DNA from: Escherichia coli
GTDB lineage: Bacteria > Pseudomonadota > Gammaproteobacteria > Enterobacterales > Enterobacteriaceae
Strand: one strand, 5' to 3'
Assembly (NCBI RefSeq): GCF_036507355.1
Contig: NZ_AP027877.1
DNA: 64,000 nucleotides
Part shown: positions 39,301 through 42,300 of the stretch, one piece after another
How the letters are laid out: the number at the start of each line of letters is the position of its first letter
How positions within the stretch are numbered: position 1 is the stretch's first letter
Made by a program: the position numbers

Positions 39301-42300
39301 CCACTTTTTTAACCATGGTGTACATCGTTTTTGTGAATCCACAAATTCTCGGCGCGGCACAAATGGACCCGAAAGTGGTGTTTGTTACCACCTGTTTGAT
39401 TGCCGGTATCGGCAGCATTGCGATGGGGATATTTGCTAACTTACCTGTGGCGCTGGCTCCGGCAATGGGGCTGAACGCCTTCTTTGCCTTCGTGGTCGTG
39501 GGGGCGATGGGTATCTCCTGGCAGACCGGGATGGGCGCGATATTCTGGGGCGCAATTGGGCTATTTTTGCTCACGCTGTTTCGTATCCGGTACTGGATGA
39601 TCTCCAACATTCCATTAAGTTTACGTATTGGTATCACCAGTGGAATCGGATTATTTATTGCCTTAATGGGATTAAAAAACACTGGCGTTATTGTCGCCAA
39701 TAAAGACACCCTGGTGATGATTGGCGATTTAAGCTCTCACGGCGTGTTGTTAGGTATATTAGGTTTTTTTATTATAACCGTATTGTCATCACGTCATTTT
39801 CATGCCGCGGTGCTGGTTTCCATCGTCGTCACTTCCTGCTGCGGATTATTTTTCGGTGATGTTCATTTTAGCGGCGTCTATTCCATTCCGCCTGATATTA
39901 GCGGCGTCATTGGTGAAGTAGATTTGAGCGGCGCGTTAACACTTGAACTCGCCGGTATCATTTTCTCCTTTATGCTGATCAACCTATTTGATTCATCAGG
40001 AACATTAATTGGTGTAACTGATAAAGCTGGCTTAATAGATAGTAACGGTAAATTCCCCAATATGAATAAGGCGCTGTATGTTGATAGCGTCAGTTCGGTG
40101 GCGGGTGCGTTTATCGGCACCTCGTCTGTTACTGCCTATATTGAAAGTACTTCTGGTGTGGCAGTCGGTGGCCGCACGGGGCTGACTGCGGTTGTGGTTG
40201 GCGTTATGTTCCTGTTGGTTATGTTCTTCTCACCGCTGGTGGCGATGGTTCCTCCTTACGCAACCGCTGGAGCGTTAATCTTTGTTGGCGTGCTGATGAC
40301 TTCGAGCCTGGCGCGCGTTAACTGGGATGATTTTACCGAATCGGTGCCTGCGTTTATTACCACGGTGATGATGCCCTTTACTTTCTCGATCACCGAAGGG
40401 ATTGCACTCGGCTTTATGTCGTACTGCATCATGAAAGTGTGCACCGGGCGCTGGCGCGATCTGAACCTGTGTGTGGTGATGGTCGCAGCTCTGTTTGCAC
40501 TCAAGATTATTCTGGTGGATTAGTAACTGGCGAGGGTTTCCAGATATCATGAGTTCTGATTACGCAGGAGAACTCATGATCTGGATAATGCTCGCCACGC
40601 TGGCGGTAGTGTTTGTGGTTGGTTTTCGGGTGCTGACATCCGGGGCCAGAAAAGCGATTCGCCGTCTCAGCGATCGGCTGAATATCGATGTTGTACCCGT
40701 GGAGTCGATGGTCGATCAAATGGGAAAGTCAGCTGGTGACGAATTTTTACGTTATTTGCATCGTCCGGATGAGTCGCACCTGCAAAACGCCGCGCAGGTG
40801 TTGCTCATCTGGCAAATTGTCATTGTCGATGGTAGCGAACAGAACCTGCTGCAATGGCATCGGATTTTACAAAAAGCCCGCCTTGCCGCGCCGATTACCG
40901 ATGCTCAGGTCAGGCTGGCGCTGGGTTTTCTGCGCGAAACTGAACCTGAAATGCAGGATATTAATGCTTTTCAGATGCGCTATAACGCATTCTTTCAGCC
41001 TGCCGAGGGCGTTCACTGGCTGCATTAAAACCGCTTCGTCTTATCAGCCTACAGACCGTGCCTGACCTGTCGGGTGGATAAGGCGTTCACGCCGCATCCG
41101 GCATCGGAACTGACAGTAGGTGAACGCATTATCTACGTTCTATTTACAGCAGCACCTCCAGCCCGTGTTTTTGCACAATGCTGAGCAGTTTTAATGAAAT
41201 GCCATTGGGGCGTTTAGCGCCACTTTCCCATTTTTGTACAGTTGAAACGCTGGTATTGAGATAGTGAGCGAAGACGGGCTGACTCACTTTTAATTTTTCC
41301 CGCAGTGCTTTTATCTCAACAGGTTGTAAGTCTTGCACGCTGGTCAGGCAGGCTTTGTCAAAAGTACGCATTGTTTCGGCAGAAATAGCATCGACGCTGG
41401 ACAATCCAGCCGCTGCGCTGTGAATAGCCTCAAATGCAGGACTTTTAAATTTAGTTTTTGCAGTCATAGCAGATCTCTGTCAGTTCTTTAGTGTTAATCA
41501 TTGCTGTTAGTTGGGCTTTCGTCAGGAAGGCATAATGCTTTGCAAGTTCACGAAACCCAGCCAGTTCCTGACTATTGATGTTCGACATATCCTGTTTTGC
41601 ATATAAAAACGTGTAAAACCAATTGCTTCCCCCTTTTGCCAGAATAATTGCACGCTCACGATTTTGGTGAAGGCGCTTTTTAAAAACGCCACCACCAAGT
41701 GCATCAGCTTTACCTTGCTCCGTTTCTAAAATGGCCCGGCACAACTCTTCATCTGTTATTGCATGAGACCTGGCTTCCCTTGCAAACCATTTGGTTTTAA
41801 ACACGCGCATATCGTTGAGGTCCTGTTATTAAAGTATATCACCAAGTGCAATACTTTATCCCTTATTCCCAACCCAATCGCGAAAATGCATATCAGCTTG
41901 CCCTATGATTTTTGTTTCTTCGAGCAGCCTCGAACTTTTCCCACAACACCGTAAAAGTTGCAAAAACGTTAAATGCGTCACACATTTCAATGTTAAAGTG
42001 GTCGGCTTTTCCCCTGAAACATGCCACGGGTAACACCATGAGTGAATTTATTGCCGAAAACCGCGGCGCGGATGCCATCACCCGACCGAACTGGTCAGCC
42101 GTTTTCTCGGTGGCGTTTTGTGTCGCCTGTCTGATTATCGTTGAGTTTTTGCCCGTCAGTTTGTTGACGCCAATGGCCCAGGATTTAGGCATTTCGGAAG
42201 GGGTTGCTGGGCAATCGGTGACCGTGACCGCCTTTGTGGCAATGTTTGCCAGTTTGTTTATTACCCAGACAATTCAGGCCACTGACCGCCGCTACGTTGT

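Follow-up and report, generated by a model that had tools for sequence, protein, structure and literature searches.

The region between nepI and yicN in Escherichia coli raises two questions: what kind of gene pair occupies it in some strains, and did that pair arrive recently or was it lost elsewhere? We addressed both for a 64,000-nt stretch of E. coli contig NZ_AP027877.1 (assembly GCF_036507355.1), hereafter the window, for which a toxin–antitoxin (TA) pair inserted between yicN and nepI had been predicted from the sequence alone. The explanation that we consider very likely is a HigBA2-family type II TA operon on the chromosome, long established in the nepI–yicN region. The genes concerned are as follows (window coordinates).

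41451..41810, minus strand: higB2-like toxin gene, 119 aa, ATG start; RelE/ParE superfamily, Pfam PF06296
41144..41467, minus strand: higA2-like antitoxin gene, 107 aa, ATG start; C-terminal XRE helix-turn-helix (HTH) at residues ~49–101
41451..41467, minus strand: overlap of the toxin 3' end and the antitoxin start, 17 nt; probable translational coupling

On re-reading, the original prediction was exact as to the 119-aa toxin ORF, the 107-aa ORF with a C-terminal XRE HTH and the 17-nt overlap. The toxin-first order that it had claimed is real, with the toxin gene lying upstream of the antitoxin gene on the minus strand. In the 32 homologous loci whose pair is intact, both this order and the gene overlap are kept, the overlap being 17 nt in 28 of them and 23 nt in the remaining four. 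Chance ORFs are excluded by the full-length PF06296 match of the toxin and the HTH_3 match of the antitoxin, and both exact proteins were present on at least 1000 public contigs. The 119-aa ATG start of the toxin was preferred over the 117-aa GTG start given by PGAP because an ATG-CGN-GTN start is kept across 36 loci. The pair is an ordinary chromosomal type II TA system that was already known as such: the RefSeq annotation says type II TA, and the PGAP product name for the toxin is just ‘RelE/ParE family’. Literature searches covering the locus, the protein accessions and surveys of TA systems in E. coli turned up no study of the module. The relE locus in the TA catalogue of the AIEC strain NRG857c is a different one, located between yiiD and fdhE.

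We then assigned the two proteins to families. The proposal of a RelE/ParE-type toxin with a HigA-type antitoxin held for the toxin, which matched PF06296 over its full length (E = 9.8e-42, 142.4 bits, query residues 1–113 on model positions 1–120). The antitoxin matched HTH_3; the HigA model TIGR02607 was not among its NCBIfam matches. PF06296 is the HigB2 family, listed under ribosome-dependent mRNA degradation and toxin-first gene order. It was the sole Pfam match of the toxin; neither PF09907 (K-12-type HigB) nor PF05015 (HigB-like) was matched, and no NCBIfam match was obtained. The earlier label ‘higBA-type’ is right for a toxin-first type II system and can be sharpened to HigBA2 (PF06296 plus a HigA2-like XRE protein), but the family of K-12 HigBA (YgjNM) does not apply.

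The AF2 model of the toxin (pLDDT 90.3, pTM 0.84) predicts a RelE-type alpha/beta (BECR) fold. When this model was compared to the PDB with Foldseek, the top ten matches were all Vibrio cholerae HigB2 (VcHigB2) chains (probability 0.99–1.0, TM 0.44–0.63). The best of these had a probability of 1.0 and TM of 0.55–0.63, and other HigB and RelE structures ranked below them. Nothing was found for the toxin among PDB sequences by phmmer, nor with a 41-sequence profile, and so the link to HigB2 rests on the shared Pfam family, a weak hhalign match of the toxin profile to VcHigB2 (probability 15%, E = 0.0017) and the predicted fold. VcHigB2 is itself a weak member of PF06296 (E = 3.3e-8). Residues K44, R46, R53, Y70, and K72 of the toxin align with the catalytic K49, R51, R64, Y82, and K84 of VcHigB2, positions that have been mutated in that protein, a correspondence based on that weak hhalign match and on BLAST to Coxiella burnetii ToxP, whose active-site residues are mapped. 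K44, R46, R53, and K72 were at least 90% conserved among 41 toxin homologues. Two parts of the toxin depart from VcHigB2. The basic beta2–beta3 loop, whose replacement lowers VcHigB2 activity 120-fold (PMC5416850, PMC11006873), is 6 residues shorter than in ToxP and VcHigB2, and the solved HigB2 structure has nothing equivalent to ~30 residues at the C-terminus, which make up two helices and a strand.

Going by its characterised relatives, from which both toxicity and ribosome dependence are inferred, the toxin would be a PF06296/HigB2 ribosome-dependent mRNA endonuclease. A ParE-like gyrase poison in place of an mRNA endonuclease is extremely improbable. The PGAP product name mentions ParE, and ParE has the same fold, but it stands far down the Foldseek list, where ParE chains reach a probability of at most 0.54 compared with 1.0 for HigB2. 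PF06296 is listed among mRNA-degrading, ribosome-dependent families, the toxin keeps the basic catalytic residues of the RelE type, and ToxP, at 31% identity, inhibits cell-free translation (PMC10098735).

The antitoxin matched the Pfam families HTH_3 (residues 52–96, E = 1.2e-7) and MqsA_antitoxin (E = 1e-5), and its best phmmer match in the PDB was V. cholerae HigA-2 (5jaa_A, E = 8.3e-10, residues 46–102). Its identity to Coxiella AntitoxP was 55% over the full length, with residues 1–45 conserved too. Residues 10–24 and 30–40 were helical in an AF2 model of a toxin-linker-antitoxin fusion, judged by pLDDT alone (>90). By analogy, the N-terminal residues ~1–45 are presumed to be the toxin-neutralising region. 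Two other family assignments of the antitoxin were rejected. As MqsA (TIGR03830/PF15731), it scored 41.1 bits against a cut-off of 61.8 and covered model positions 47–119 of 127 only; it has one cysteine, and so it is without the N-terminal CxxC...CxxC zinc-binding domain. As NadS (NF041265), it scored 41.3 bits against a curated equivalog cut-off of 60.

Upstream of the toxin gene, four candidate signals were located.

41830..41858, no strand: operator-like imperfect palindrome, 13-nt arms and 3-nt spacer, 85% complementary (repeat search)
41840–41849, no strand: palindrome core, GCAC-N3-GTG
41833..41841, minus strand: putative extended -10 element, TGaTATACT, read by eye
41821..41824, minus strand: Shine-Dalgarno sequence AGGA, 10 nt upstream of the toxin ATG, read from the sequence

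Of 36 homologous loci, 32 have GCAC-N3-GTG, placed at -39 to -41 relative to the ATG; its arms are conserved and its spacer varies. TGnTAnAnT is present in 34 of the same loci, at -30 to -33, and ACAGGA was conserved upstream of the toxin in most homologous loci. The extended -10 element counts as inferred because a strict scan of the region for two-hexamer sigma-70 promoters and terminators found nothing. A conserved palindrome overlapping an extended -10 element suggests autorepression through the predicted operator. The V. cholerae HigA2 operator is a single inverted repeat that runs over the -10, TGTACGC-N5-GCGTACA (PMC5416850, PMC11006873).

Put together, the operon would work as follows. 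A single transcript would start from an extended -10 promoter lying some 15 nt ahead of the toxin start. Translation would begin with the toxin, to which the antitoxin would be translationally coupled via the 17-nt overlap. The RelE-fold toxin would act on the ribosome, cutting A-site codons with K44, R46, R53, Y70, and K72 and arresting translation. The N-terminal ~45 residues of the antitoxin would neutralise it, and an antitoxin dimer may bind the palindrome over the -10 through its C-terminal XRE HTH and repress the operon. The toxin would be released once the labile antitoxin is lost. Toxicity, ribosome dependence, the mode of neutralisation and autorepression are all carried over here from V. 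cholerae HigBA2 and Coxiella ToxP/AntitoxP.

The second question was whether the pair had been inserted. That yicN and nepI adjoin in K-12, as originally stated, was seen in a K-12-type genome (O16:H48), where the 210-bp intergenic region contains no gene. A presence/absence survey bore out that the pair is variable in E. coli: it was detected in 1716 of 5426 complete genomes. Carriers include the ST131 strain MNCRE44, O157:H7 and O145:H28; K-12, an O111:H11 strain and an O78:H4 strain lack it. In complete E. coli genomes, the pair was always single-copy, always at the nepI–yicN site and never on a plasmid. Two further features describe the site.

41100..41943, no strand: segment separating occupied from K-12-type genomes, ~845 bp here versus a 45-bp filler (pairwise alignment)
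41072..41137, plus strand: REP-type element at the yicN-side (left) junction; Rfam naRNA4 (REP-derived), 36.7 bits, E = 2e-4, sub-threshold

The REP-type match was the only one in an Rfam search of the region, and it accounts for the multiple matched places per genome in the E. coli genome search. No integrase, transposase, target-site or other direct repeats were found at the junctions. The same order, nepI-[toxin-antitoxin]-yicN, occurs in other Escherichia lineages, Citrobacter koseri, C. amalonaticus, Klebsiella indica, and K. michiganensis, and in Salmonella the TA pair is adjacent to nepI. At these syntenic loci (Escherichia, Citrobacter, Klebsiella, Salmonella) the flanking genes are orthologous (NepI 81–98% identical), and toxin identity is graded, from 97% and 93% within Escherichia to 69–73% in the other genera. 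Given the shared synteny and the lack of mobility genes, the module is most likely ancestral at nepI–yicN in Enterobacteriaceae and was lost in K-12-like lineages, which is the more parsimonious reading of the sequence comparison. Of the phrase ‘inserted accessory DNA’, the variability in E. coli stands, but ‘inserted’ is probably wrong as a description of the pair.

A recent horizontal insertion into this strain's lineage, with the empty K-12 site as the ancestral state, is the unlikely alternative. The pair is missing from 3710 of the 5426 complete genomes, including K-12, and family members are present on 183 plasmid records. In Enterobacter, Pectobacterium and Serratia, close homologues adjoin a tyrosine-recombinase-like gene and SIR2-HerA defence genes, and the non-coding upstream sequence is conserved across families; this recombinase-like neighbour and upstream conservation indicate that the Enterobacter/Pectobacterium/Serratia version does move. 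The E. coli pair, however, has the orthologous flanks, graded toxin divergence, bare junctions and single chromosomal site described above, and the same site is occupied in other genera. Moreover, every empty site examined has the same 45-bp filler, which was identical in four unrelated ‘empty’ genomes, implying that the polymorphism is a replacement and not a clean insertion. Nor is the antitoxin a phage gene: just 4 of 50,697 phage records contain related antitoxins.

Within the filler, a possible toxin relic was considered. A 19-nt stretch, oriented like the toxin gene, agrees with codons 29–35 at 16 of 19 positions; the three mismatches all fall on synonymous third positions, yet a shuffle test gave p of about 0.02 and other alleles align equally well to codons 72–79. 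We did not rely on it.

Signs of both maintenance and decay were observed. Purifying selection acts on both genes: between Escherichia lineages, dN/dS was about 0.1 (0.075–0.136 for the toxin and 0.069–0.097 for the antitoxin). The most likely history is that roughly two in three E. coli genomes lost the module and that some others are undergoing toxin-first decay. One E. coli lineage carries three independent toxin lesions (ATG>ATA, W8stop and a 1-nt deletion) beside a 100% intact antitoxin. In O157:H7, the toxin start is changed by ATG>ATA, so toxin expression may be weak in some lineages, and several other species have a truncated toxin beside an intact antitoxin. Strain HS-02 (77% identity, frameshifted toxin) was rejected as an intermediate decay state, its long homopolymer runs marking an assembly artefact.

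These lesions could also mean that the pair is a relic, whose toxin is no longer meaningfully toxic and whose antitoxin persists as an XRE regulator in its own right, perhaps acting on the divergent nepI promoter region. The greater conservation of the antitoxin between genera (78–86% identity versus 69–73% for the toxin) would fit this reading, which we nevertheless hold to be very unlikely. The window preserves the toxin ORF with its start codon and every catalytic position, the ORF is also intact in MNCRE44 and most sampled genomes, and the dN/dS of the toxin is low. Toxin-first decay is, besides, what a genuinely toxic gene should show.

What the HigBA2-type operon does for its host was considered next. 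That anti-phage defence is its main role, with infection triggering the toxin and leading to abortive infection, is improbable. RelE/ParE-superfamily toxins are discussed in the literature as defence toxins, and SIR2-HerA-like defence genes directly follow close homologues in Enterobacter sp. 10-1, Serratia and Pantoea, but the E. coli neighbours yicN and nepI are housekeeping genes with no defence island, the toxin had no PADLOC match and the antitoxin gave weak HTH matches only. The ‘T3SS island’ that the original prediction placed nearby is a real block, though not a secretion apparatus. It spans 43220–59522 (16.3 kb) and encodes an IatC/Air-like 2929-aa inverse autotransporter, EilA, SipB/SipD-like translocators, and a SicA-like chaperone. 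The TA pair is independent of this island because strain AHM8C212RI has the pair at 99.8% identity without it.

A more ambitious combination can be imagined, which we regard as a long shot when taken as a whole. Here the pair, far from being a selfish leftover, would be useful and kept at nepI–yicN since before the split of Escherichia, Citrobacter, Klebsiella and Salmonella, for example to abort phage infection or through antitoxin tuning of the divergent purine-efflux gene nepI, and its toxin may bind the ribosome or be neutralised in a manner unlike VcHigB2. The structural grounds for the latter would be the C-terminal helix-helix-strand and the short beta2–beta3 loop of the typical PF06296 toxin, each of them absent from all solved structures.

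Taken by itself, the locus matters little beyond tidy annotation. It is a chromosomal TA pair, syntenic across genera and polymorphic in E. coli, that can be seen at several stages of decay: intact, with the start codon lost, and with a triply inactivated toxin beside an intact antitoxin. Carriers include clinically important lineages (ST131 MNCRE44, O157:H7, and O145:H28), and K-12 offers a convenient null host. A structure of a full-length ‘typical’ PF06296 toxin, which this locus could supply, does not yet exist: the C-terminal quarter of the family model is missing from the V. cholerae protein that has been solved.

Finally, we compared the pair to known systems. HigB/HigA of K-12 (YgjN/YgjM) and HigBA of Rts1 share toxin-first order, a RelE-superfamily fold and an XRE HTH antitoxin with it, but their toxins belong to other Pfam families (PF09907 and PF05015) and are weak structural matches (probability about 0.9, TM 0.31–0.37, 9–12% identity). 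In its HTH region the antitoxin is similar to the C-terminal domain of MqsA and NadS; the toxin is not MqsR. HigBA2 of Acinetobacter baumannii pAB120, likened here by description, shares the HigBA2 name and toxin-first order but is plasmid-borne; its toxin, a ribonuclease, is counteracted by the antitoxin, its promoter is repressed both by the antitoxin and by the complex, and it stabilises plasmids (PMC5906591).

V. cholerae HigB2/HigA2 (VCA0468/0469; PDB 5JAA, 8A0X; PMC5416850, PMC11006873) provides the closest solved structures for both the E. coli toxin and the antitoxin HTH. Membership of PF06296, the RelE-like catalytic set and a single inverted-repeat operator over the -10 (predicted here) are common to both. 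VcHigB2 differs in its toxin sequence (~20% identity, out of reach of profile searches), spans model positions 8–96 of 120 without the C-terminal ~30 residues of the E. coli toxin, and is encoded in a superintegron cassette, whereas the E. coli pair occupies a syntenic core-region locus. The operators differ too: TGTACGC-N5-GCGTACA in V. cholerae versus GCAC-N3-GTG(C) here.

Coxiella burnetii ToxP/AntitoxP (CBUA0028/CBUA0027, plasmid QpH1) has been characterised experimentally for growth inhibition, antitoxin rescue, translation inhibition, toxin–antitoxin binding, and binding to the toxP promoter (PMC10098735). It differs from the E. coli pair in being plasmid-borne and serving plasmid maintenance where the latter is chromosomal, in its 4-nt gene overlap (17 nt here) and in the long basic beta2–beta3 loop of ToxP (PILGKGKRGG), 6 residues longer than that of the E. 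coli toxin. The two systems are alike in toxin-first order, in full-length similarity of both toxin (31% identity) and antitoxin (55% identity), in the C-terminal helix-helix-strand ending in an ELxEI/V motif and in the presence of the five active-site residues.

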